A DNA stretch of 64,000 nt from a virus, in IMG/VR virus record IMGVR_UViG_3300005732_000005, positions 1 through 64,000 of that record; one strand, given 5' to 3'. Under the pieces are notes generated by a model. That model ran no database searches. It was given only the letters and a program-made list of their open reading frames with translations, and was not told where the DNA came from. This document shows, in pieces, positions 1 through 23,610 of this stretch. How positions within the stretch are numbered: position 1 is the first letter of the stretch; each line of letters opens with the position of its first letter. The position numbers and the translations under genes were made by a program.

Positions 1-26
1 GAAACAAAACAACTTAAGAGAACATT

Positions 27-269
27 ATGAAAGTTAAAAACTTAGAGTCACTAAAAGAATTAATCTTTAATGAAGATGTTGTAACTATCCCGTTAGGTTT
101 TACTTATACAGGGTCAGACTGTTACGGGTGCTATCAAGACTTGGTTACAAAAGAGATCTATGTTAGACACTCAGAGAATAGCTTTTATAAATACAATTCT
201 GTAGAAGAAACTATTGCAGAATATAAAGAATTAGGTTATCTAGTTAGTTTTAATTTATTGGATAAATGA
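27..269 (+). CDS. hypothetical early protein
   Basis: ORF with AAGAGA RBS-like element upstream; part of rightward early cluster. Confidence 0.75.
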   Translation: MKVKNLESLKELIFNEDVVTIPLGFTYTGSDCYGCYQDLVTKEIYVRHSENSFYKYNSVEETIAEYKELGYLVSFNLLDK

Positions 270-272
270 ATA

Positions 273-319
273 GTTGCTTTGTTGGGTCGTTTTATAATAA
301 AATGCCTCTTAACAAGGTA
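273..319. repeat. intergenic stem-loop repeat, copy 1
   Basis: TTGCTTTGTTGG..TTTTA-TAA-TAAAATG..TCTTAACAAGGTAA; similar copy at 588-634; each precedes an early ORF. Confidence 0.65.
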
Positions 320-348
320 ATTTAATTTAACTTAAAGAGGGTAATAAA

Positions 349-579
349 ATGACTAATAATAATGAACAGATGTACTTATTGAATGAAAACAGATTTAATA
401 AACCAGCTTTGAATGCCGAAACTAAAGAAGAAATGAAAGGATTAATTAGTCTAGGTTATGGTAATTTTGTAAGAGTACTTGATGACATCTTTGTAACATA
501 TATATCTATAGATCCAATTAGTTGGGAAAAAGAAAGTGTTAGGATGTACAAGGCTTATTTAAACTCAGACATTTTTTAA
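349..579 (+). CDS. hypothetical early protein
   Basis: ORF with GAGGG RBS. Confidence 0.75.
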   Translation: MTNNNEQMYLLNENRFNKPALNAETKEEMKGLISLGYGNFVRVLDDIFVTYISIDPISWEKESVRMYKAYLNSDIF

Positions 580-587
580 ATAAAGGG

Positions 588-634
588 TTGCTTTGTTGGA
601 GCATTTTAAATAAAAATGCTTCTTAACAAGACAA
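588..634. repeat. intergenic stem-loop repeat, copy 2
   Basis: TTGCTTTGTTGGAGCATTTT-AAAT-AAAAATGCTTCTTAACAAGACAA imperfect inverted repeat. Confidence 0.65.
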
Positions 635-655
635 TTTAATTTTTGAGAGAATATT

Positions 656-826
656 ATGAAAAATAAACACTCTTCTAAGCGCCTAGAGCGTCTATTCAAG
701 TTAACAGATACATTACAAGAGAGGACACTTAGAACTAAGTATCTTTTAACCAAACAGGGGCTTTCTAAGGGTGCAGAATTGTATAAGCCGAGGGCTATTG
801 TTAAAACGGTTATTGTGAGGGGCTAA
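656..826 (+). CDS. small basic hypothetical protein (56 aa, MKNKHSSKRLERL...)
   Basis: Hand-translated ORF below the track cut-off; GAGAGA upstream; follows the repeated stem-loop like its neighbour. Confidence 0.55.
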   Translation: MKNKHSSKRLERLFKLTDTLQERTLRTKYLLTKQGLSKGAELYKPRAIVKTVIVRG

Positions 827-1045
827 GTATGAAAATTAATCTAGGGTGTGACGAGTTTACAGCAGATTATTGAGCCTAATCCACATTTTCATTCAGGGAC
901 TAAAATGTATAACCCAAGGTCTAGCTAGCTTTTTCATTCAATAGCTGATTCTAGAAAGGATAATTTCTATAGAGAAAATGGTTTTCATTTGACAGGGGAT
1001 TCTGCAGGAATTAAGGATTTATGAGATAATCTCAATTTTTCTAAA

Positions 1046-1153
1046 TGTTAATTGTTTGTTGTTAGATGTTAATAAATTGTTAACAAGGCTAACAGGAGTT
1101 AACAATTTTAAAATGTTAATCTATTGTGACAAACAATTAACATTTTATTAACA
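1046..1153. promoter_or_regulatory. cluster of ArcA-box-like direct repeats
   Basis: TGTTAA repeats at 11-bp spacing: TGTTAATAAATTGTTAA 1067-1083 (+), TGTTAATAAAATGTTAA 1137-1153 (-), weaker copies at 1046 and 1114. Confidence 0.6.
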
Positions 1154-1232
1154 ATTACATACATTGAAAACAGGTTACGAATGATGGGGAAAGAATTGTT
1201 AAAAGTCAATACTTAATTAGAGGTAAATTAAA

Positions 1233-1421
1233 ATGTACGTTTTATATGATGGTATGCAAGAATCAAGCCAAGATGTTAAAATATACTGCCCTACGTTAAA
1301 GGGTGATTTCTATCTAAGCCCGTGGTTTGCGAGTTACCCAGTTTGGGATAATGATAATTTCTTTTTTATAGAGGGGTTAGGGAATGATGAGTTAAGACTA
1401 TCTACAATGTTAGAGTTCTAG
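1233..1421 (+). CDS. hypothetical protein
   Basis: ORF with GAGGT RBS. Confidence 0.65.
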   Translation: MYVLYDGMQESSQDVKIYCPTLKGDFYLSPWFASYPVWDNDNFFFIEGLGNDELRLSTMLEF

Positions 1422-1703
1422 TAAGTATCATGCCAAAAAGATTAATTTTGTTAGAATAGTTTAGTCCAGAAAATCACCTGTATATAACAAAAATACATAT
1501 ACTGCTGAGACGTCCTGAGAGCCATTCTGAGGGGTTTTTGTGTTTACCCTAACATTGACAGTTTGAAGAGGAGATCTCAATTCGCCAATATATTGGCGGT
1601 GGACATTTGACAAAGTGGCACAGTATTTGCCAGTAAGGGTATTGAGAACAATTCTCATCAAAAAGTGTGCCAAAAATAAATTAAAATAATTTGTTGAAAG
1701 GGG

Positions 1704-1733
1704 TTGCCTGTTTTCAAAATTTAGTGCTAAGAT
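1704..1733 (+). promoter_or_regulatory. early sigma70-type promoter
   Basis: GGG-TTGCCT...TG-C-TAAGAT (extended -10) with AT-rich upstream tract; same design as 2391 and 2731. Confidence 0.6.
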
Positions 1734-1786
1734 CACCCCATCAAGGCAATAAAGCTTTTAACATATTCTATATAGGAATCATTATC

Positions 1787-2341
1787 ATGTTATCACTAAA
1801 TGAAAAAGCAGCTCACTCAGTAACATACTTTGAAGCATTGCAAGCTAACCCAGATAATACAAAACAGTTTGCTATTGAAAAGCTAGGGTATTCAAAAGGT
1901 GAAGCTGAAGAAGTGGTGAAAGTATGGTGTGATTGTTTTGTAGAATTATCTAACGTTATGGAATGGGATCAGATTGTAGAGCTATCACAGGAAACAATCA
2001 CTGAAGAAGAGATCGCCAAGTCACAAAAACAAGATACAACAAAGTCAATTGTTAAGCAATTTATGAGTGACTGGGACAAAGAGTATAAAGCGATAAAGAG
2101 AGTTCAGAAATTACAAGAGGATCTAGACTGGGTTTATAAAACAGAAAAACCATATGAAAGAATTGCTAACAGTTTGAAGCTATGGAAACAAAAACACACC
2201 GATGCTTTCCAAGTGATTAAAGACAAAGTGGTAAAAGGATTGTATACAGAATCAACACTTGATAAGGCTATCGAATTGCACGGAAAGAATGATCTGGGGT
2301 ATGTAATAGACTGTTTTATGGACATGTTAGAAGAGGCATAA
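1787..2341 (+). CDS. hypothetical early protein
   Basis: ORF; start moved to ATG 1787 after the promoter and AGGA RBS. Confidence 0.75.
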   Translation: MLSLNEKAAHSVTYFEALQANPDNTKQFAIEKLGYSKGEAEEVVKVWCDCFVELSNVMEWDQIVELSQETITEEEIAKSQKQDTTKSIVKQFMSDWDKEYKAIKRVQKLQEDLDWVYKTEKPYERIANSLKLWKQKHTDAFQVIKDKVVKGLYTESTLDKAIELHGKNDLGYVIDCFMDMLEEA

Positions 2342-2390
2342 AACCTTTTCTTTTATAACTTTTTATTCTAAGTGAATTTGCTGAAGAGGG

Positions 2391-2418
2391 TTGCACTGCC
2401 CCCAGAATTTGCTATTAT
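2391..2418 (+). promoter_or_regulatory. early sigma70-type promoter
   Basis: GAGGG-TTGCAC-N16-TATTAT with TG extended -10. Confidence 0.6.
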
Positions 2419-2489
2419 TTATATCAAGCAAGGGGGAACAGAGATACACCCCCTCCAAACGAGAATTATTATCAAATAGGAATATTAAG

Positions 2490-2711
2490 ATGAATAAGCA
2501 AGAAACATACCAAATTATCGAACGTTTTTCTAAATTAGTAGATAAATATGAAAACAAACCAAAGTGGCACACTCTTTGCAAGGATGTAGTTTTCTGTGCG
2601 GAGTCTCTAGCACAACAAATCAATCTTGGCAAGGATAAATTTGAAATAAAAGAATATGTTGAAGATGTTAATAATGCAATTGAGAATTGTTATCAACAAG
2701 AAATAATTTAA
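2490..2711 (+). CDS. hypothetical early protein
   Basis: ORF; ATG 2490 after AGGA RBS. Confidence 0.7.
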   Translation: MNKQETYQIIERFSKLVDKYENKPKWHTLCKDVVFCAESLAQQINLGKDKFEIKEYVEDVNNAIENCYQQEII

Positions 2712-2730
2712 AATAAATGTGTTTTGAGGG

Positions 2731-2758
2731 TTGACACCCTCAACCAGTTTGCTATTAT
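2731..2758 (+). promoter_or_regulatory. early sigma70-type promoter
   Basis: GAGGG-TTGACA-N16-TATTAT with TG extended -10. Confidence 0.7.
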
Positions 2759-2799
2759 ATACACATAGACAAGGCGAACAACAAACAGGAAAAAACATT

Positions 2800-3051
2800 A
2801 TGCTTAAATTCAAAAAACACTTTGCGGGTCGTTATATTGCAACACTAGGAACAGCAGTTATAGTAGTTGAGAAGCTGGAAGGGGAGTGGACATCATACCT
2901 TGAAGGGGACATGACAAGGGACACACAAGAGTTCTACCATACAAAAAAGCAAGCTATTGAAACAGTTAACTGCTATGCAAGTAATCCTGACAATGTGAAG
3001 GAATGGCAAGAATACTTAACTGAAGAAGAGGTAAAAGTTTTTCAAATCTAA
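2800..3051 (+). CDS. hypothetical early protein
   Basis: ORF; ATG 2800 after AGGA RBS. Confidence 0.7.
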   Translation: MLKFKKHFAGRYIATLGTAVIVVEKLEGEWTSYLEGDMTRDTQEFYHTKKQAIETVNCYASNPDNVKEWQEYLTEEEVKVFQI

Positions 3052-3070
3052 ATAAGAATCATTATCAACA

Positions 3071-3100
3071 AATGCCACTGTAAAATGTGGCATTCTTTTT
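3071..3100 (+). terminator. rho-independent terminator ending early block
   Basis: AATGCCAC-loop-GTGGCATT followed by CTTTTT. Confidence 0.65.
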
Positions 3101-3110
3101 GCATACTAAA

Positions 3111-3130
3111 TGTTATGTTATAACATAACA
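3111..3130. promoter_or_regulatory. Zur-box-like palindrome
   Basis: TGTTATGTTATAACATAACA contains two overlapping TGTTAT-N3-ATAACA cores; another core TGTTATAGTATAACA at 4578-4592. Confidence 0.55.
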
Positions 3131-3394
3131 AAATCTCTATTCACTTAATGAATAATTCCCACCTATAGCAAGTATCTAGCAAGCTACGTGCCAACTTGAT
3201 TTTACTAAAACACACTCCCTCTGAAAGCCTTATAAATAAAGGGCTAGAGACTTACGTCCTCAAAAGCAATTCCTGAGCATATGCAACACTACCCAATACA
3301 CTAGCTCAGGTTAATTAACCTTGCTCATACAGGCTCTCTCAAGGCGTTATATCTATATAAAACACTTTGGCACAGTATGTGCATATGAATAAAC

Positions 3395-3487
3395 CTTGCA
3401 TATGTATGCAAAAAGTGAATAATTGAGAATAGTTTGCATTTAAAGGTTAATGCATACCTATGCACAAATTGTGCATAAATATCTACC
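3395..3487. promoter_or_regulatory. ARG-box-like sites (ArgR)
   Basis: TGCATATGTATGCA (3397) and tandem 18-mers AATGCATACCTATGCACA-aat-TGTGCATAAATATCTACC with the canonical 3-bp spacer. Confidence 0.5.
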
Positions 3488-4547
3488 CATTATCTACTAC
3501 GTAGATGCAAGTAGTTCTCATTTACAAACAGTTATTAACCATAGGTTAAATGATAATTATTCTTATTACACTAGAACACACATAAATCTAAATGATAATC
3601 ATTACTAAATACGAATAGTTATCATTAATAAACTCTAATAATATCAATAATCTAAATGAGAATTGTTTTTATTTGCAATGTGCAAATGAGAAGTGTTATT
3701 GTTTAAGAATTAATCTTATTTAGAAATGTTAGCGTTTGTTAACATAAATAGTAATTATTCTTATTTAGATTACTTTATTAATCTTTTTAATGAGAATGAT
3801 TCGTATTAATTGATAAATTAAAATGTGGTATGTTGTTTGCATGTAATGCAAGAAGGATACCTCTTTGTTGCTATGCAACATATATGCCAAACTACCTTGA
3901 AAGCCTTTATTTATATAGCCATGGCTATATGAGAGTGATTGTTATTTGCAATTGCAAATTAAAGTAGAATGTTATGTTACATAGTAACAAAAGGGGGATA
4001 TTCGTCAACCTTGTTGACAAAGACAGGGTATTGTGAGAAGGGATAATTGGGGAAGGGGATTGCTGTAGTGGGAGTTGTGGGGGAGAGGGGTTTAACAAAC
4101 CACGAACACTAACACGACAACAACACAAGACCATTCACCTACTGTTACATAGTAACAAAAGTAAACACCATCTATTGCGTAGCAATAAAAGTACACTCTC
4201 TGTTAACATCGTTAACAAATATATAACCTTTCAAACAATAATCCTCTCACAAGCAATAATATCTCTGATGTAAATTAATTGTTAATAAAAGGTATGTTCT
4301 CGTTAACGTAGTTAACAAAGTGTAAACCCCCTTTACAAAATACAACTATTCATCATATCTATGATAAGAAGTATTATATTCATCTAACTAATACGACATA
4401 ATATAGAATATGTTAAATATAGATGAGAATGATTCTTGTTTGGAGGGAATACTTATTCAATAGGAATTGTTGTTATTTGAGAGGGATTCTCATCAACTAC
4501 GTTGATAAAAGAGATACTTGTTGAGAGGGGTTCTTATTTGAGGGAGT

Positions 4548-4940
4548 AGGATATTTTATACGGAAAGTAGGTTGTTATGTTATAGTATAACAAACGTTGA
4601 GCAATGCTCACTTTACTTTCCACTTTTCCATAAATATCATTTACTTACAGATATTCTTCTCCAGATATTTCCACCCTCATACAAGGATATTTCTCCCCCC
4701 AAAATTTTATTTTTGTAATATAGGATATTTTTATATACTCCGTATATAGAGTGTGGTATGCTTTAAAAGGAGGTTAGTATTTTTATTATTTTTAGTATAT
4801 TTACTAAAGGCAAGCCTATTTTTCCTTAATTAAAACAATAACTTACAGAGAGGTTTAGACAAAATAATTTCATTTTGTAGGAGATATTTTTAATGGTTGT
4901 ATATATTTGAAAGTATGTTATTATTAAGAGTAGGATATTT
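4548..4940 (+). repeat. iteron-like direct repeats, candidate replication origin
   Basis: Seven same-strand GATATT(T/C) copies (AGGATATTT at 4548, 4684, 4722, 4932; CAGATATT at 4648, 4662; GAGATATTT at 4881) immediately upstream of a helicase-like gene. Confidence 0.45.
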
Positions 4941-4976
4941 TATTTTTAAAACACACTTAACAGAGGAGAAATATTT

Positions 4977-6257
4977 TTGAAGATAGAACTTATTGATTAC
5001 ATGATGGGTACAGGTAAGAGTAGTTATATTTTGGACAAGGTAGTTGATTGGAGTAATGAAGGTCTTTATGAACAGTTTATCTATATAAGTCCATTACTAA
5101 GTGAAGTAGGTGGTAAACGTAAAGAGAAAGGTAAAGGTTTCTTAAGAGGAAGAGTTCAAGAGAAAGCAGATTGTATGGACTTTAGATACCCTCTTAATAT
5201 ATCAAGTTCAAAACTAGATAGTTTTAGAGATTTACTTTTAAAAGGTAGTAATATTAGTGCTACACACAATGTATTTACAAACCTAACACCTTTAGATGTA
5301 GACCTTATTAAGGAGAGGAAGAATGTTCTCATCATTGATGAGGAAGTACAAGCTTTAGATACATATACAGATTTAGGTGTAAAGCATTTACAAGTATTAA
5401 TCAATGGTGGACAGGTTTATAAGGATGAAACTAACAGGTTATGTTGGAATCACAGATTGTTTCCGCAAACAGAAGATTTCCTAAATAACCCTTCAGAAGA
5501 TACATACTCTAAAAACGATTTACAGTTATCTAAATTCATTAATTTGTGTGATGGTGGTTACCTTCATTCGGTGAATGATAAGATTATGATCTGGGAATAC
5601 CCTATTAGTGTTCTAGAAGCTTTTGATAAAGTTATTGTCATGACTTATATGTTTGAAGCTAGTCCTATGTACTCTTGGTGTAGGATGAATAACGTTGATA
5701 TTGTCAGACTAGATATACCAGAACTTAAATCCAGAGAGGATGAGATAAAAGCGTCTCTAAAGGATTTAGTAACTGTAGTAGAAACCAGTAAGATGAAGAC
5801 AATAGAGAATTTTGGGTATAGTTATTCTTGGTGGAAAGGTACAGGTAGTAACAAAACTTACACAGCAAAGGTTAAAAATGTTTTAGAGGATTGTGTACAG
5901 AACCAATTAAAAGGTTTAAGTTACAAGGACTATATATTCACCTGCCCAGAGAATAGTTTCCCCAAAATTAAGGGTAAGAGATACAGCAGGAGTGACTGGT
6001 TGTATAGTGATTGTAAAGCTACCAACGATTATGCAGACAAGAAGGTTATGTTCTACCTTTACAGTAAGTTCCCTAATGTGTTTATTAGCCCTTTTTGTAA
6101 AGAGAAAGGTGTGAGTATTGACGAAGACATGTATGCCCTCAGTTCTATGCTACAGTGGTTGTGGAGAGGGTGTATCAGGAAAGGAGAACCTATGAAAGTG
6201 GTGATATTAAGTAAGAGAATGAGGGATTTGTTTAAGGAGTGGTTGGATGGAGAATAA
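4977..6257 (+). CDS. SF2 helicase-like / putative origin-binding protein
   Basis: Walker A MGTGKSS, Walker B IIDEE, C-terminal QWLWRGCIR motif VI-like; TTG start with GAGGAG RBS. Confidence 0.7.
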   Translation: MKIELIDYMMGTGKSSYILDKVVDWSNEGLYEQFIYISPLLSEVGGKRKEKGKGFLRGRVQEKADCMDFRYPLNISSSKLDSFRDLLLKGSNISATHNVFTNLTPLDVDLIKERKNVLIIDEEVQALDTYTDLGVKHLQVLINGGQVYKDETNRLCWNHRLFPQTEDFLNNPSEDTYSKNDLQLSKFINLCDGGYLHSVNDKIMIWEYPISVLEAFDKVIVMTYMFEASPMYSWCRMNNVDIVRLDIPELKSREDEIKASLKDLVTVVETSKMKTIENFGYSYSWWKGTGSNKTYTAKVKNVLEDCVQNQLKGLSYKDYIFTCPENSFPKIKGKRYSRSDWLYSDCKATNDYADKKVMFYLYSKFPNVFISPFCKEKGVSIDEDMYALSSMLQWLWRGCIRKGEPMKVVILSKRMRDLFKEWLDGE

Positions 6258-6993
6258 ATACTATGTCTACCAAGTTGTTCACGAAGGAGAAGTAATCTAT
6301 GTGGGTAAGGGTAAAGGTGGCAGATACAAACACGCAACCTCAGGTAAAAGTCATAATTATAAACTAAATGAATTCCATTTTAAACATAAGCTCCTTGGAG
6401 ATGTGTTGCCAGAAGTTGACATTATAAAGTATTTTGAAGAAGAGAAGGATGCTTTAGCTTACGAGTCAAAACTTATACTAGAACACTACCCTTATTGTAA
6501 CATACAGAAGAAAGAGAACGCATTAGATTTGTTTAAGGTCGAGCCTGTTAAAGATGGTGGTACGGAAGGACAAGATTATGTCCCTGTATATGAGGAAGGT
6601 GGGACAGAAAAGGAAGAGTTGGTTTTTCTTCCCACTACTGTAGAAGATGTGGATGATTTAATGAAGAAAAGATATGAAATCTATCTCGAAAACACAGAAC
6701 TTCTACGACCAAATACTTATCGGACATTCTTGAGTAGTCTTTTGTTCAACAAATCTTTGAAGTGGCGCGATATATCGCACCTCATTGAGGAATTGGTAGA
6801 ATCTATCCCAGATATGAGGAAAGATAATGGTGGACATAATAAGAGGGAGTTTGCAATTAAGTATGGTTTGTCTGAAAAAGAGGCTAAGTGTATTAACAAC
6901 AGGACAAATTATCTTAAAAAGAAAGGTAAACCTGTAACAGAAGAAGATTTATTAAAGACATTAGAAAAGTTTAGGAGGAAAAATGGAAAATAA
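6247..6993 (+). CDS. GIY-YIG-domain protein (paralogue 1)
   Basis: YVY..VIYVGKG..RY..H, conserved E and N; C-terminal possible HTH. Confidence 0.65.
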   Translation: MENKYYVYQVVHEGEVIYVGKGKGGRYKHATSGKSHNYKLNEFHFKHKLLGDVLPEVDIIKYFEEEKDALAYESKLILEHYPYCNIQKKENALDLFKVEPVKDGGTEGQDYVPVYEEGGTEKEELVFLPTTVEDVDDLMKKRYEIYLENTELLRPNTYRTFLSSLLFNKSLKWRDISHLIEELVESIPDMRKDNGGHNKREFAIKYGLSEKEAKCINNRTNYLKKKGKPVTEEDLLKTLEKFRRKNGK

Positions 6994-7528
6994 GTATTAT
7001 GTGTATACGGTTAGTGTTGACAATGAAGTGGTTTATGTAGGTAAAGGTAAGAATGACAGAGCTGAGCACGTAACATCAGGTTGCAGTCACAACAAAGGAT
7101 TGAATGAACTTTATTTTAGACATAAGTTGTTAGGAGAAGATTTACCCTTGGTAGAAATTTATTCCTCAGTGTCAGAAAATGTTGCACTAGCAGAAGAGCA
7201 TTTGCTTGTGAAACGCTATAATCCACGATGTAACTCAGCACTTAAAAATACTGATGTTAAACTTTATAATCATTGGGATGATGGAGATATTCTTAGGTAT
7301 ATGGAAGAAAATTGGGACACTAGATCTTTCAGAGACATACCTGAATCGACAGGATTGAGTAATGACCAAAAAGATTGGATTTACGAGAATATTTGTGGAC
7401 ACGAGATTCTTTATGACGAGGAAATACTTTCTATAGCGGTATCTCATAGTAATCTATACGGGAAAGAGATAAGTTGTGAGTTTGTAAGAGCATTGTCTCA
7501 AGTTAGGGATACTAGAGAAGGGAGGTAG
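6983..7528 (+). CDS. GIY-YIG-domain protein (paralogue 2)
   Basis: YVY..VVYVGKG..R..H..E..YNPRCN; N-terminus highly similar to preceding ORF. Confidence 0.65.
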   Translation: MENKYYVYTVSVDNEVVYVGKGKNDRAEHVTSGCSHNKGLNELYFRHKLLGEDLPLVEIYSSVSENVALAEEHLLVKRYNPRCNSALKNTDVKLYNHWDDGDILRYMEENWDTRSFRDIPESTGLSNDQKDWIYENICGHEILYDEEILSIAVSHSNLYGKEISCEFVRALSQVRDTREGR

Positions 7529-7574
7529 AATCCCTTCCCATCCCACCTATGTGTTTTGAGTAATTACAGATAAC

Positions 7575-7597
7575 AAAAAGGAGGCTCACGCCTCCTC
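7575..7597. terminator. terminator hairpin at convergent junction
   Basis: AAAAAGGAGGC-TCAC-GCCTCCT; near-identical hairpin at 14471. Confidence 0.6.
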
Positions 7598-7981
7598 TAC
7601 AACCTCCATCACATCTCCCAAACATTCCCTAATCTTTCGGAACAAAGACTTTCTATTACTAAGTTTTACACTCTCAGAATAACCTACACAGAAACCATGA
7701 TTAGCTCCTAAAGTTTCCGTCACCTTAACACCATTAACTTCAACTAAATATATCCAAGGTATGTTTCCTTTCAATTCAATATCTATACCTATAGAGTTCA
7801 ATCTCCTTTTTAACCTAGTTAAAGGGTGTGTGTGGAACGTATTCACCTCATCACCAACTTCAAGGTTTCTATAATTACTGGACACTTTTGTAAACCTTTC
7901 ACATTTAGATTGTAAATAGTATTCTTTATAAGCTCCGAACCTTGTAGGAATGGTTTCTATTGCTGTTACATAGAATTTCAT
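7586..7981 (-). CDS. hypothetical protein
   Basis: ORF in tightly overlapping leftward run. Confidence 0.7.
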   Translation of the reverse strand: MKFYVTAIETIPTRFGAYKEYYLQSKCERFTKVSSNYRNLEVGDEVNTFHTHPLTRLKRRLNSIGIDIELKGNIPWIYLVEVNGVKVTETLGANHGFCVGYSESVKLSNRKSLFRKIRECLGDVMEVVEEA

Positions 7982-8244
7982 ATCACCTCCTCTCCAAACC
8001 TTCTTTCATACTCAAATTTAAATTTTCCAATCAATACTTCATCTAAGGTAGTATCTTTACAAAACTTCTCTACTTCCCAAGCAGCTATGACATATTTAAT
8101 ATCGTGATACAACCCTTCGTCCACCCATTCGAAAGAGTACTCCATTGCATCAATGTCTGCAAATTTACTACGTGTAGAAAGGGTTACATCTTGGTTGCTG
8201 TATTCGTTACAAGCTTTAATAATTTTTAATGTATCGATATTCAT
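7978..8244 (-). CDS. hypothetical protein
   Basis: ATGA-coupled ORF. Confidence 0.7.
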   Translation of the reverse strand: MNIDTLKIIKACNEYSNQDVTLSTRSKFADIDAMEYSFEWVDEGLYHDIKYVIAAWEVEKFCKDTTLDEVLIGKFKFEYERRFGEEVI

Positions 8245-19858: not shown

Positions 19859-20950
19859 TTATGCTTCGTATTCAAATTTTAAATCTTCTGGAACATCATT
19901 AACAAAACCTTTAGCTACATAATTTGCATTTTGTGCCTCTTGGTTTGCTACAGCAATAATATCTTGTTGAATATAGTTCTTAATCCAAGGAAAAGGGTTT
20001 TCCGTTACAACTTTAAATTTAAACGGTAACTCTAGTCTGTCGTAAACTTTCTTGGCTAACATGAGAACATAATCTTTTAGTAAAGAAGAATTAAAACCTA
20101 CAACACCGTTCACATTATCAAAAAGAGTATCTGCCCAAGCTAGTTCGTGTTCTACGAAAGTGTCAAGTATCTTTGCAATCCCTGCATCATCCCATTCTTG
20201 CCACTTTTCCTTGTTCTTAATAATGTTTAATTGAAGAACCACATTATTAACGTGGCTAATAGCTTCATCATTATTAATTAGTGCAACAGCCTTGCCAATA
20301 CCATTAAAACGGTTAGTGCTTTCACACAAGGCAAATGTTGCAGCAAAGCTTGATAAGAACATAATACCTTCTAGTCCTAATAAAGATACTAATGTCTTAA
20401 GGCAAATCTTCTTTTTCTCTGATTCTGAATACTTGCCAGTATCTAAATTATCTACCATATCCATATGGTCTTTGAAAGCATACAACACTTTGCCTAGTCT
20501 ACGAATAACATCTTCATCTTTCTTGATACGTTCAATCATCTCATTAGGATCATCAAAGCACTGTGCAATAATACGTCCGTAAGTATCCTCGTGAACGTAT
20601 TCAGAATCTCCGTGATAAGAAATCAAACCTTTCAGGTAAGGATTACTTGCGATAGGCAGGAACAGTTGTTGAATAGAACCTGATGCAATGCTGTCTGCTG
20701 CCATCTGGAAAGATAATGTTCTTATCATCATCTCTCGCTCATCTTCAGTGACCTTCTGCATATCTTCGTAATCTGTTGTGAAGTCAATTTCATCACTTGT
20801 CCAGAAAAGTGACCTTTGTTCTTGGTCTGCTTCTCTAATTTCAGGATAAGGGATGTTAAAACTGTCAAATATACCTAAGTCTTCTCCAAAATACAAAGGA
20901 TAGTTTCCTGTCTGGTTACCTGAATTATTGATATTGAAATTCTTACTCAC
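19859..20950 (-). CDS. nrdB: class I ribonucleotide reductase beta subunit
   Basis: FW..DEIDF..D, D, E..H...Y radical tyrosine, LEGI.F.SSFA, DE...H di-metal ligands. Confidence 0.9.
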   Translation of the reverse strand: MSKNFNINNSGNQTGNYPLYFGEDLGIFDSFNIPYPEIREADQEQRSLFWTSDEIDFTTDYEDMQKVTEDEREMMIRTLSFQMAADSIASGSIQQLFLPIASNPYLKGLISYHGDSEYVHEDTYGRIIAQCFDDPNEMIERIKKDEDVIRRLGKVLYAFKDHMDMVDNLDTGKYSESEKKKICLKTLVSLLGLEGIMFLSSFAATFALCESTNRFNGIGKAVALINNDEAISHVNNVVLQLNIIKNKEKWQEWDDAGIAKILDTFVEHELAWADTLFDNVNGVVGFNSSLLKDYVLMLAKKVYDRLELPFKFKVVTENPFPWIKNYIQQDIIAVANQEAQNANYVAKGFVNDVPEDLKFEYEA

Positions 20951-20965
20951 TTAATACTCCTCTAA

Positions 20966-23610
20966 TTATAATGAACAACTTTCACAATCTGGTGCTTTAC
21001 CTTCGTCACCTCTTCCTGTCTTACTCACAGAGTAATATAATGTTTTAACACCCATACTATTTCCATAGTAGAAGTTTTCGTGCATCTCTTGCTTAGATTG
21101 CTTCTTGTTCTTGTATTTACTGAAATCTACATAAGTATCAGCACTGATAGTTTGGTCTGTAAATTTCTGAACAATAGCATAAAGGTTTAGAATATCTTTG
21201 TGATCTAAGTCATAAGCAATCTCATAATTATACTTATCACTATCAGGTGCAAAGAACTGAACCTTACCTTTCTTACTATCTTTATATACAAGAGTGTTTC
21301 TTGCTGGATAGATACTGTTTAATCCACCAGAAGCTAAACTACTTGACTCACAAGGCATATGGCAAGCAATAACACTAAACCTTACACCACTCTCCTTAAT
21401 ATCCGCTGCTAAAGATTTCCAGTCATAAATATAGTGGTCTTTAACAAGCTTGTCAACATTCTTATTGTAAGTTTCTAATGGTGTCCAACCTTCTGACCAC
21501 TTAGTCTTATCAATGAATTCAAAAATGCCACGTTCTTTAGCAAGCTTCACACTAGCTTTTAATAGATAGTAATAATGCCTCTCTGACACTTCGTGTAAGA
21601 ATTGTAAATCTTTATAAGACTTACCTTCTCGTGCTACAAGTGTTGCTAAGTTTGTCATACCTACTCCAACACTACGATAAGCTTGTGCTGTAGCGCGTAA
21701 TTGAGGGAAAGGGTAATCCATATTCTCAATTAGATTATCTAAACTCTTTAATACAATGTAAGCCGTTTCCTCATAATCTTTGTCATCTTCGATGTTAGCA
21801 ACATCAATAGCTGATAAGAAACACTGTGCTGTAACACCGTCACCTTCTTCATACTCTGTTTTATACAACTCTGTAATATGATTATAAGGTTTTGTTGGTA
21901 ATAAAACTTCCTGACCATTTATCCCTCCATTTTCATGGGGCGTGGACTATATCATCACCTGTTCTAGGTGTTGGGCGCTAATGTGGTTATTAAGCTCTCA
22001 AGCTCCACTAGTCTCTGAACGTTCTCTATCCTTAGAGCTTCGCTGCTGATTGGCATAGGTAACCCCTTAGCTTTCCAGCAATTCACCCAATTTTTCAATA
22101 CATATTCCTATGTAAAGCTGCGTCAATTTCACAGATTTGAAAGTCTTATTGTTTCTTTAAAAGGTGTATGTCGATTACCTTCTGTTACGTTATATCTGTA
22201 AAGTCTTCCTGTCTCAGATCTAACCTCTAAGTAAAGATCTACAATGTCATAAGCACTTACCTCTACTTTCCTTGCATTATCATCTGCAAGTATATTGTCC
22301 ATAATCTCTGTAAAGCGAGTTAAATCTTTAGAATAAAACTCTTCGTAAAGTTCAGGATAATCTGCACGACTTACTAAAGCTACCTTTTCACGTCTAGCTG
22401 CTCTACGTAACACATCGTGATTCACTCGGAAAGAGTAATCTAACAATTCAATTCTACGTTCTTCTGGACTACGTGGGAGCTTCAATCGTAACAAGTTTTT
22501 AATCTCAGGGTCAATACATTCGAAGCTCACTGTCGCACTACCACCTCTGGCAGATTGTGTCACCTCTTTCACGATACGGTTAAGAGTTTTATAATGTGGA
22601 AGTTTGCCACCTGCCTTAGCATAACCATTTCTGACATCATCTTTTGGACTACGGACATCGTATTCAACACCCAAACCTGCACTAGATGCTGTTGCCATAA
22701 AGGCTACGTGCTTAGAAGCTTCAATACCGTGTAAACTATCGCCTGCAGTTGTAATAACACAACTTACTCCGATGTTACTCTTTGTTCGTTGACCTGATAA
22801 TACTGGAGATGGAATGTTAATCTTATTACTACGTGCTTTATGGTAATACATAATAACATCATCTAAGCTATCTTTTTCCATCAAACTCATAGCAACACCC
22901 ATATACATATACTGAGGTAGCTCTACAAGCTGGCCTTTACCGTCATATTTTAAATATTTATCTATAAATTGACGAATAGTTGGGTAACCGTAGTTAAGGT
23001 CGTAATCGTGGTCAATGAAAGATGCTAAATACTCAATATCTTCTTCGGAGTAATTCATCTCTCTCCAATGACCTTCTGAAACAGCCCACTCATAAAAGTC
23101 CACAAAATCTTTGGGGGCAATTGAACTATTTCGTAAATCACCTAGTAACAAACGACCTGCAACTTTATTGTGTTGATAATCTTCTTTATCTAAACAAGCT
23201 TGGATTAAAGCATCTTGAACAGTTTTAGAAGATACAATACCATCTGGTAACTTCCTAACTGCACTCATAGCAATAGATGACCAATTAACATTATCTGTAT
23301 TTGCTACTGCCCATACTGCCATAGAATTTAGCTTATCTGCTGACCATTCTTCTTTACTGCCGTCACGTTTTAATACGACACGTTTATTAAGCAAATCACC
23401 CACAGTATTAGCACTGTCGCTTTCTCCGTGATATTCACCATTAACAAAAATTTGTGGAACAGTTCGGAAACCTTGGTTACGGATAAACTCAAAAGAATCT
23501 ACATCTTCTGAAATGTCTACATAGTTGTATTCGATACCTTTACTATCTAAAATATTTTTAGCCTTATCACAGAAAGGACAATTCGGTTTACCATATACAA
23601 CTACTTCCAC
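20966..23610 (-). CDS. nrdA: class I ribonucleotide reductase alpha subunit with N-terminal glutaredoxin and ATP-cone; two exons (23610-22131, 21915-20966), 809 aa spliced
   Basis: CPFC Grx domain, KRDG ATP-cone, PSP..SG, SCV, RGGSA, spliced SNL-C-QE, MPCESSS, DQTISAD, KTLYY, terminal CESC. Confidence 0.9.
21916..22130 (-). mobile_element. group I intron (IA-like, ORF-less, 215 nt) in nrdA
   Basis: 5' exon ends in U (CUGU|) pairing with GCAG (P1); UUGAC pairs with 3' exon GUCAG (P10); P AAUUGCUGGAAA, Q AAUCAGCAG, R GUUCAGAGACUA, S GAUAUAGUCC; terminal G; removal restores frame and the catalytic Cys codon. Confidence 0.93.

Follow-up and report, generated by a model that had tools for sequence, protein, structure and literature searches.

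The stretch of DNA analysed here (the window) comprises bases 1-64000 of the 140,374-bp IMG/VR phage record IMGVR_UViG_3300005732_000005, and its left part carries about twenty copies of a palindrome that is indistinguishable by sequence from the operators of the host iron repressor Fur. The palindromes are strongly enriched, they recur in related phages, and five of them occupy conserved positions around early promoters. They are tentatively read as host Fur operators that gate accessory early transcription according to the iron status of the cell, with titration of Fur as a secondary effect, a reading to which we assign a probability of roughly 45%. It is favoured because of the conserved geometry of the promoter-linked boxes.

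Enrichment and arrangement of the palindromes

The consensus used for scanning was the 9-1-9 palindrome AATGAKAATNATTMTCATT, which has 18 specified positions. A first-pass annotation, made from the sequence of the window, had listed 18 box starts; all of them are present and match the consensus at 13-17 of the 18 positions, and additional sites were found at 3585, 3702 and 4520. The same annotation placed the closest packing in gene-free DNA at 3422-3946, where 11-12 boxes were indeed counted. The boxes and the region that houses most of them are as follows, none being assigned to a strand:

1641-1659: Fur-like box, 15/18, just 3' of a sigma54-type element at 1616-1631
1771-1789: Fur-like box, 14/18, overlapping the Shine-Dalgarno sequence and the ATG (1787) of the open reading frame (ORF) 1787-2341
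2458-2476: Fur-like box, 15/18, in the 5' leader of ORF 2490-2711, at about +33 to +51 from the promoter 2391-2418
2679-2697: Fur-like box, 14/18, its centre at about -77 relative to the start of the strong sigma70 promoter 2731-2758
3051-3069: Fur-like box, 15/18, at the stop codon of ORF 2800-3051 and immediately before the early terminator 3071-3094
3095-4976: gene-free control region of 1.9 kb, housing the arrays
3422-3946: dense array in gene-free DNA, made up of 11-12 Fur-like boxes
4422-4538: second group of four weaker boxes (4422, 4459, 4476, 4520), each adjoining a G-rich GAGGG block

Bases 1-3051 contain small rightward ORFs with sigma70-type promoters, a block closed by the terminator at 3071-3094, and rightward genes restart at 4977, after the gene-free DNA. 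Within the dense array, the boxes start at 3422, 3504, 3549, 3585/3591, 3608, 3655, 3685, 3702 (weak), 3747, 3789 and 3928, with spacings that are mostly 42-47 or 17 bp.

When up to three mismatches were allowed, ten matches were found in the whole 140,374-bp genome, nine of them inside 1641-4440. With up to four mismatches the genome holds 27 matches, 16 of which fall inside 1600-4600, a clustering with a binomial P of 2e-20. Dinucleotide shuffles of 1600-4600 yielded 0.04 matches at the stricter threshold, compared to the 9 observed, and 0.30 (maximum 3) at the looser one, compared to 16; shuffles of the whole window gave an expectation of 0.54 against the same 9 observed. Enrichment is therefore strong relative both to shuffled sequence and to the rest of the genome, matches being nearly confined to 1639-4540. 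The concern raised in the first-pass annotation, that AT richness inflates the matches, did not hold, since the GC content of the region (32.7%) is little below the genome's (36.4%) and the region's own shuffles stay far below the observed counts. A matrix refined on the region recovers 20 sites there and just four weaker ones in the other 137 kb. The refined motif, TAAATGA(G/T)AAT-N-(A/G)TTCT(T/C)ATTTA, has the 10-1-10 form given for Shewanella Fur boxes (PMC3790847).

Sequence equivalence of the palindromes to Fur operators

The phage boxes fit the 19-bp inverted repeat of Fur (GATAAT-type hexamers; 7-1-7 core TGATAAT-N-ATTATCA). When the matrix built from the phage sites was run on positions 600-640 kb of the E. 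coli K-12 chromosome, four of the top five matches were known Fur operators: fepA-fes came first with 23.6 bits, fepB-entC gave the second best score of 18.4 as well as a further match of 10.2, and fepD-entS scored 10.2. The single off-target match in these 40 kb was ybdN-citR. Across the whole K-12 genome, the consensus with up to three mismatches matched 51 times, compared to 7 times for a reversed-pattern control. Seven of the best places that were checked lie just 5' of gpmA, ryhB, yoeA (a TonB-receptor fragment), sufA, fecI, fecA and fhuF, the other two being a spacer of the DLP12 prophage and a position 5' of ydhY. The DLP12 box has one mismatch and is situated at 580592-580610, in the ylcI-nohD spacer, just 5' of the packaging gene nohD. 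The proven operators fepB-entC and fepD-entS have three mismatches, as do many phage boxes, and the nine phage sites with at most three mismatches fall in the range of E. coli fhuA, fepB-entC, fepD-entS, cirA and exbB.

The same holds closer to the predicted host. The portal protein of the phage is 62% identical to the portals of Pseudoalteromonas phages HM1 and J2-1 and 42-49% identical to those of myophages of about 130-145 kb infecting Vibrio, Enterovibrio and Shewanella, with more distant matches in many Escherichia and Pseudomonas phages. Because of these portal relatives, the host is very probably a marine gammaproteobacterium, and its genus is probably Pseudoalteromonas or a relative. 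Two Pseudoalteromonas genomes, picked by a genus-specific 16S probe and confirmed by their record titles, contain 12 (P. aurantia) and 11 (P. citrea) sites with at most two mismatches, the control giving 3 in each. Of the eight best sites in P. citrea, four stand directly 5' of genes for TonB-dependent receptors; of the seven P. aurantia loci examined, one is 5' of a PepSY_TM gene. Altogether, 14 of the 15 Pseudoalteromonas sites examined are intergenic.

Overlapping sites shifted by 6 bp are a feature of Fur operator clusters (PMC2189734). Several such pairs occur in the relatives 1.121.O, helene and 1.187.O and in phage T5, and the window has one, formed by the boxes at 3585 and 3591. The phage genome itself gave no match to the Fur family (PF01475) at E<=1.

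Taken together, these E. coli and Pseudoalteromonas comparisons agree with the first-pass assignment of the motif as the gammaproteobacterial Fur box, and Fur probably binds the phage copies. Compared to chromosomal Fur operators (fepA-fes, fepB-entC, ryhB, fhuF, fecI), the phage boxes have the same 19-bp 9-1-9 palindrome with its 7-1-7 core, a similar number of mismatches (1-3) and, in one pair of the window, an overlap with a 6-bp shift, and the phage matrix detects the chromosomal copies. They differ in number, with about 20 sites in 3 kb whereas a chromosomal promoter has 1-3 overlapping sites, and in context, most of them lying off the -35/-10 elements, in a lytic genome and beside genes without any link to iron.

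Clusters in other phages

Related phages of Pseudoalteromonas, Vibrio, Enterovibrio and Shewanella also carry such clusters in gene-free DNA. The counts are given below as consensus matches / matches of the reversed-pattern control:

Pseudoalteromonas phage J2-1: 7 / 0, six of them inside a 1.7-kb part of a 5.5-kb gap that lacks annotation
G002 (142-kb IMG/VR contig): 8 / 4, with 11 matrix sites at L012:7258-10164
Phage 424E50-1: 7 / 2
Phage 1.121.O (Enterovibrio): 14 / 3
Phage helene: 11 / 5
Shewanella phage 1/40: 10 / 2, four in the terminal repeat
Phage K354: 11 / 1
Vibrio phage 1.161.O: 12 / 1, the cluster lying in a 1.65-kb gene-free gap
Phage 11895-B1: 8 / 3
Phage 1.187.O: 12 / 0

RYC, H101 and J2-1_QLiu-2017, which had no excess of consensus over control, act as negative controls. 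When four Vibrio phages that are about 82% identical were aligned, the boxes fell in the best-conserved block. J2-1 and an HM1-like record are colinear on both flanks of the array; in place of the 1.84-kb J2-1 segment with seven boxes, however, HM1 has 0.47 kb of sequence unrelated to it, and one flanking box is degraded there. Since the box segment is missing from such a close relative of J2-1, the array is accessory and dispensable. As for the window itself, close relatives suited to footprinting of this exact array were sought by megablast against phages, which returned no match. The neighbouring 426-aa protein, searched against viral and metagenome contigs, gave distant matches only, and the two closest portal relatives are fragments of 5-6 kb.

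The motif also extends beyond this family. T5 has 14 matches compared to 2 for the control, all of them in its two terminal repeats, with five per repeat copy inside the annotated injection stop signal (iss), one of these being a perfect match. In rV5, 7 matches were counted against 0, and in phi92, 11 against 1, two boxes lying in the 343-bp direct terminal repeat and five within 110 bp. Gene-free DNA also hosts the clusters of rV5/phi92-type phages, either bordering the early-gene block or within a terminal repeat. The window phage is similar to this broad group in having a distantly related portal, and differs from it in its marine host, its larger array and its sigma54-type and Zur-like elements. 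As the motif is common to the unrelated T5 and to the other phages, a host factor rather than a phage protein is the best explanation for it. The literature searched contained no account of Fur boxes in the genomes of lytic phages: the preprint on the T5 iss (10.1101/866236) mentions neither Fur nor iron, Fur is absent from the rV5 genome paper, and fur is not named in a Keio screen for an rV5-like phage.

Geometry of the promoter-linked boxes

The promoters and promoter-like elements around the five left-hand boxes (1641 to 3069) and the array, with one more distant element, are the following:

1704-1733, + strand: early sigma70 promoter read from the sequence (TTGCCT, 18-nt spacer, TGC-TAAGAT)
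2391-2418, + strand: early sigma70 promoter read from the sequence (TTGCAC, 16-nt spacer, TATTAT, with TTTGC 5' of the -10)
2731-2758, + strand: early sigma70 promoter found by promoter scan (TTGACA, 16-nt spacer, TATTAT, 11/12 matches)
1616-1631, + strand: sigma54-type -24/-12 element, TGGCAC-N5-TTGC
2565 (+), 3088 (+), 3368 (+, looser), 3178-3193 (-), 3874-3889 (-) and genome position 134441 (+): further sigma54-type elements

The first of these promoters lies between two boxes whose centres, at 1650 and 1780, are 130 bp apart, box 1641 being centred at about -90 from the start of this promoter. In J2-1, the two box centres of a promoter that has both are 127 bp apart. A distance of 127-130 bp amounts to about 12 helical turns and would allow a repression loop. 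More generally, a box centred at about -75 to -90 from an early promoter is found in the window (1641, 2679), in J2-1 and in G002, where that at L012:8128, centred at about -75, matches window box 2679. A leader box at about +31 to +51 is found at 1771 and 2458 in the window and again in J2-1. Window box 1771 and G002 box L012:8625 cover the Shine-Dalgarno sequence and ATG in the same register, and window box 3051 and G002 box L012:8849 stand just before the early terminator. The positions of the five left-hand boxes thus recur despite unrelated adjacent genes: no homology links the small box-linked ORFs of the window to those of G002 and J2-1, or the latter two sets to each other, and these ORFs gave no informative match in Pfam or PHROGs and no DNA-binding domain. 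The earlier idea that boxes near gene starts could render early genes iron-responsive fits these conserved positions.

Strict sigma54-type matches (TGGCAY-N5-TTGCW) are nearly limited to the same DNA, five of the six in the 140-kb genome lying inside 1616-3889. In most cases a box follows the element, and two of the elements, 3368 (+) and 3889 (-), converge on the array. Similar elements were seen in J2-1, G002 and Shewanella phage 1/40. A sigma54 activator (PF00158) had no match in the phage at E<=1.

Two side observations concern these promoters. At the early promoters (2725-2745 and 2385-2400), a G+C-rich stem-loop over the -35 (GAGGGTTGACACCCTC) is combined with the extended -10 TTTGCTATTAT, a module common to the window, G002 and J2-1 that recalls the early stem-loop promoters of rV5/phi92-type phages. 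In addition, a 38-nt element at 1514-1551 (...GCCATTCTGAGGGGTTTTTGTGTTTAC) shares 92% identity with intergenic DNA of Vibrio phage 1.161.O and is recognisable too in J2-1 and in the four-phage alignment.

Proposed iron-dependent gating of early transcription

In the proposed model, Fur-Fe2+ would occupy the boxes on the incoming genome in an iron-replete cell. The five left-hand boxes, which flank or follow early promoters of the sigma70 and sigma54 types serving small accessory genes with little conservation, would gate these transcription units by looping or by acting as a roadblock, so that the genes would be expressed mainly in an iron-starved host. The promoter-poor array at 3422-3946, together with the group at 4422-4538, would build a large Fur-DNA complex on the non-coding control region. 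The array of the replicating genome would inevitably take up Fur as well, as a by-product or a secondary effect.

Several points weigh against this model. Classical Fur-repressed promoters have the box over their -35/-10 elements, and none of the five promoter-linked boxes overlaps such elements. The promoter scan detected no sigma70 promoter reaching 10/12 matches within 3400-3960; as the 12-box array contains no strong promoter, simple promoter repression fails to explain the density of boxes, and operator gating alone leaves it unaccounted for. Many boxes have a degenerate right half (TTATT for TCATT) and 3-5 mismatches. Moreover, Fur binding is predicted from sequence and the host was assigned indirectly. 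Finally, the array is dispensable in HM1, so any role it plays would be accessory.

Alternative explanations

The foremost alternative is the one proposed by the first-pass annotation, namely that the array is a decoy which titrates Fur as phage DNA accumulates, thereby derepressing host iron uptake and supplying phage enzymes that depend on iron, such as NrdB. Multicopy Fur boxes are known to titrate Fur, which is the principle of the Fur titration assay (FURTA), and the 12-16 array boxes do lie in promoter-poor, gene-free DNA. The numbers are also compatible with such an effect: the nine sites with at most three mismatches in 3 kb compare to 51 in all of E. coli (3 versus 0.011 per kb), one phage copy being equivalent to about 18% of that chromosome's sites, and the two Pseudoalteromonas genomes hold just 11-12 sites with at most two mismatches. 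From these densities, about 100 phage copies would exceed the host sites many-fold, which makes titration arithmetically plausible. In addition, the phage does encode a class I ribonucleotide reductase, NrdA and NrdB, the latter being the di-metal enzyme to which the annotation had referred. However, the absence of promoters around the sites is true for the array at 3422-3946 and false for the five boxes at 1641-3069, which stand at conserved operator positions, and sigma54-type elements point into the array itself. HM1, a viable close relative of J2-1, has no array, titration would arrive only late in infection, and a genome scan found no box near the phage nrd genes. T5, whose cluster is of the same kind, destroys host DNA within minutes, so that derepression of host genes is unlikely as a general purpose. 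The promoter-positioned boxes, HM1 and T5 thus speak against the decoy in the form in which it was proposed; we consider it unlikely and, as we estimate, less probable than an operator role.

A broader version, to which we give similarly little credence, is that lytic gammaproteobacterial phages (the marine family, the rV5/phi92-type and T5) independently gained Fur-operator arrays that would serve as a copy-number-dependent sink or landing pad, sensing iron at entry and, during replication, pulling Fur off the host chromosome and so reprogramming the uptake of iron, as in a natural FURTA.

Less probable still is a structural or landing-pad role, in which Fur, a host DNA-binding protein present in abundance, would organise, protect, anchor or pause the DNA of a first-entering or terminal control region, for the most part apart from any gene regulation and in parallel to the T5 iss. 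The location of the T5 matches in the terminal repeats, with five per copy in the iss, points in this direction, as do the boxes inside the 343-bp repeat of phi92 and in the terminal repeat of Shewanella phage 1/40, and the array of the window lies among iterons and palindromes typical of cis-acting sites. Nevertheless, a 68-bp "direct terminal repeat" that was considered as the true end of the window genome was rejected, being an assembly overlap; the map is consequently circular with an arbitrary start point, and the repeat marks no physical end. Besides, no DnaA-box series like that of T5 is present, HM1 manages without the array, and iron-dependent binding would be odd for a structural factor.

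A comparably low probability is attached to the idea that the boxes bind a phage-encoded regulator, for instance an early-gene repressor whose site only resembles a Fur box. The boxes do flank early promoters, most early proteins have no assigned function, and operator arrays for a phage's own repressor exist, as exemplified by the stoperators of mycobacteriophages. Against this, the same 19-21-bp consensus is found in T5, in rV5/phi92 and in the marine family, across four host genera, and it coincides with the Fur motif of the host in both E. coli and Pseudoalteromonas; moreover, the phage has no Fur-family protein and the box-linked genes are not conserved.

Lastly, a functionless relic, consisting of AT-rich repeats from local duplications that resemble Fur boxes by chance, is hardly credible: several boxes do belong to longer direct repeats (six families, D1-D6, spaced by 42, 92 and 106 bp), but the enrichment is far above that of shuffles, distant phages without DNA similarity have the motif but not its flanks, and the boxes lie in the most conserved block of the four Vibrio phages.

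Other elements of the control region and of the genome

Besides the boxes, Zur-like and many other short palindromes are found in the control region at 3095-4976, along with a G-rich tract and RGATATTT iterons, and the same type of region is present in the relatives inspected (G002, J2-1, Vibrio phage 1.161.O and Shewanella phage 1/40). The Zur-box-like palindromes (TGTTATA-N-TATAACA) are at 3111-3130 and 4578-4592 in the window and at 134357, 134386 and 134415 in the genome; six of the seven matches genome-wide fall in the control region or in this triplet, spaced by 29 bp, near 134.4 kb. Vibrio relatives have boxes at an identical 29-bp spacing that are Fur-like rather than Zur-like. The iterons, all on one strand, are located at 4549, 4663, 4685, 4723, 4882 and 4933, which represents six of the 14 in the genome. 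The same iteron array adjoins the box cluster in G002, four Vibrio phages and Shewanella phage 1/40, and may be an origin or packaging element.

Palindromes of the type TTGCA-N3-TGCAA (3395-3415, 3674-3690, 3836-3855 and 3946-3960) are similar to LuxO/NtrC-type activator sites. Between 3968 and 4600, about ten different palindromes with stems of 5-6 bp are each followed by AAAG; G002 and J2-1 have the same class of palindromes with differing sequences. An Rfam search of 1-8000 returned no family at E<=1, and therefore no known small RNA such as RyhB.

The nrdA gene is distributed over two ORFs at 20966-23610 (- strand), one encoding the glutaredoxin, ATP-cone and N-terminal half (22129-23610) and the other the C-terminal half (20966-21868). 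The halves are about 260 bp apart, possibly reflecting an intron. The nrdB gene occupies 19859-20950, and genes for PhoH, ThyA and DHFR are close by.

Comparison with known systems and significance

The T5 iss region (Repeat Region 3, in the left terminal repeat) is long and untranslated, contains direct and inverted repeats and palindromes, and lies beside early genes; likewise, the control region of the window is an untranslated block, rich in repeats and palindromes, that adjoins early genes. T5 is, however, an unrelated siphovirus, with a 10-kb terminal repeat, a two-step injection and a series of DnaA boxes (10.1101/866236), whereas in the window phage a single TTWTNCACA match was found in 1-8000 and no cluster anywhere in the genome.

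The parallel with FURTA is that many Fur-box copies on replicating DNA could deplete free Fur, the difference being that FURTA is a laboratory artefact of high-copy plasmids. To our knowledge, no natural element exploits Fur titration, and none was found in the literature searched either. Host-regulator sites are known on phages, as illustrated by the Fur-controlled stx1, the DtxR-controlled tox of corynephage beta, the PhoB and NtcA boxes of cyanophages and the LexA boxes of temperate phages. In these cases, as in the one described here, the phage carries operators of a host nutrient or stress sensor and its genes follow host physiology. Those examples nonetheless involve one or two sites at a defined promoter, often that of a cargo gene, in contrast to a large gene-free array in a lytic phage.

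Over large parts of the ocean, bacterial growth is iron-limited, and how phage infection relates to the iron status of the host is poorly understood. In this context, the phages described here probably read or exploit the iron status of their host. Cultured relatives are available, namely J2-1, HM1 (a natural array-minus variant), 1.161.O, phi92 and T5. If the proposed reading is true, it would offer a testable handle on iron-dependent outcomes of infection, as well as on the non-coding control regions of rV5/phi92-type phages and the injection-stop repeat block of T5, and lytic phages of Vibrio, Shewanella, Pseudoalteromonas and E. coli would be wired into the iron sensor of their hosts.

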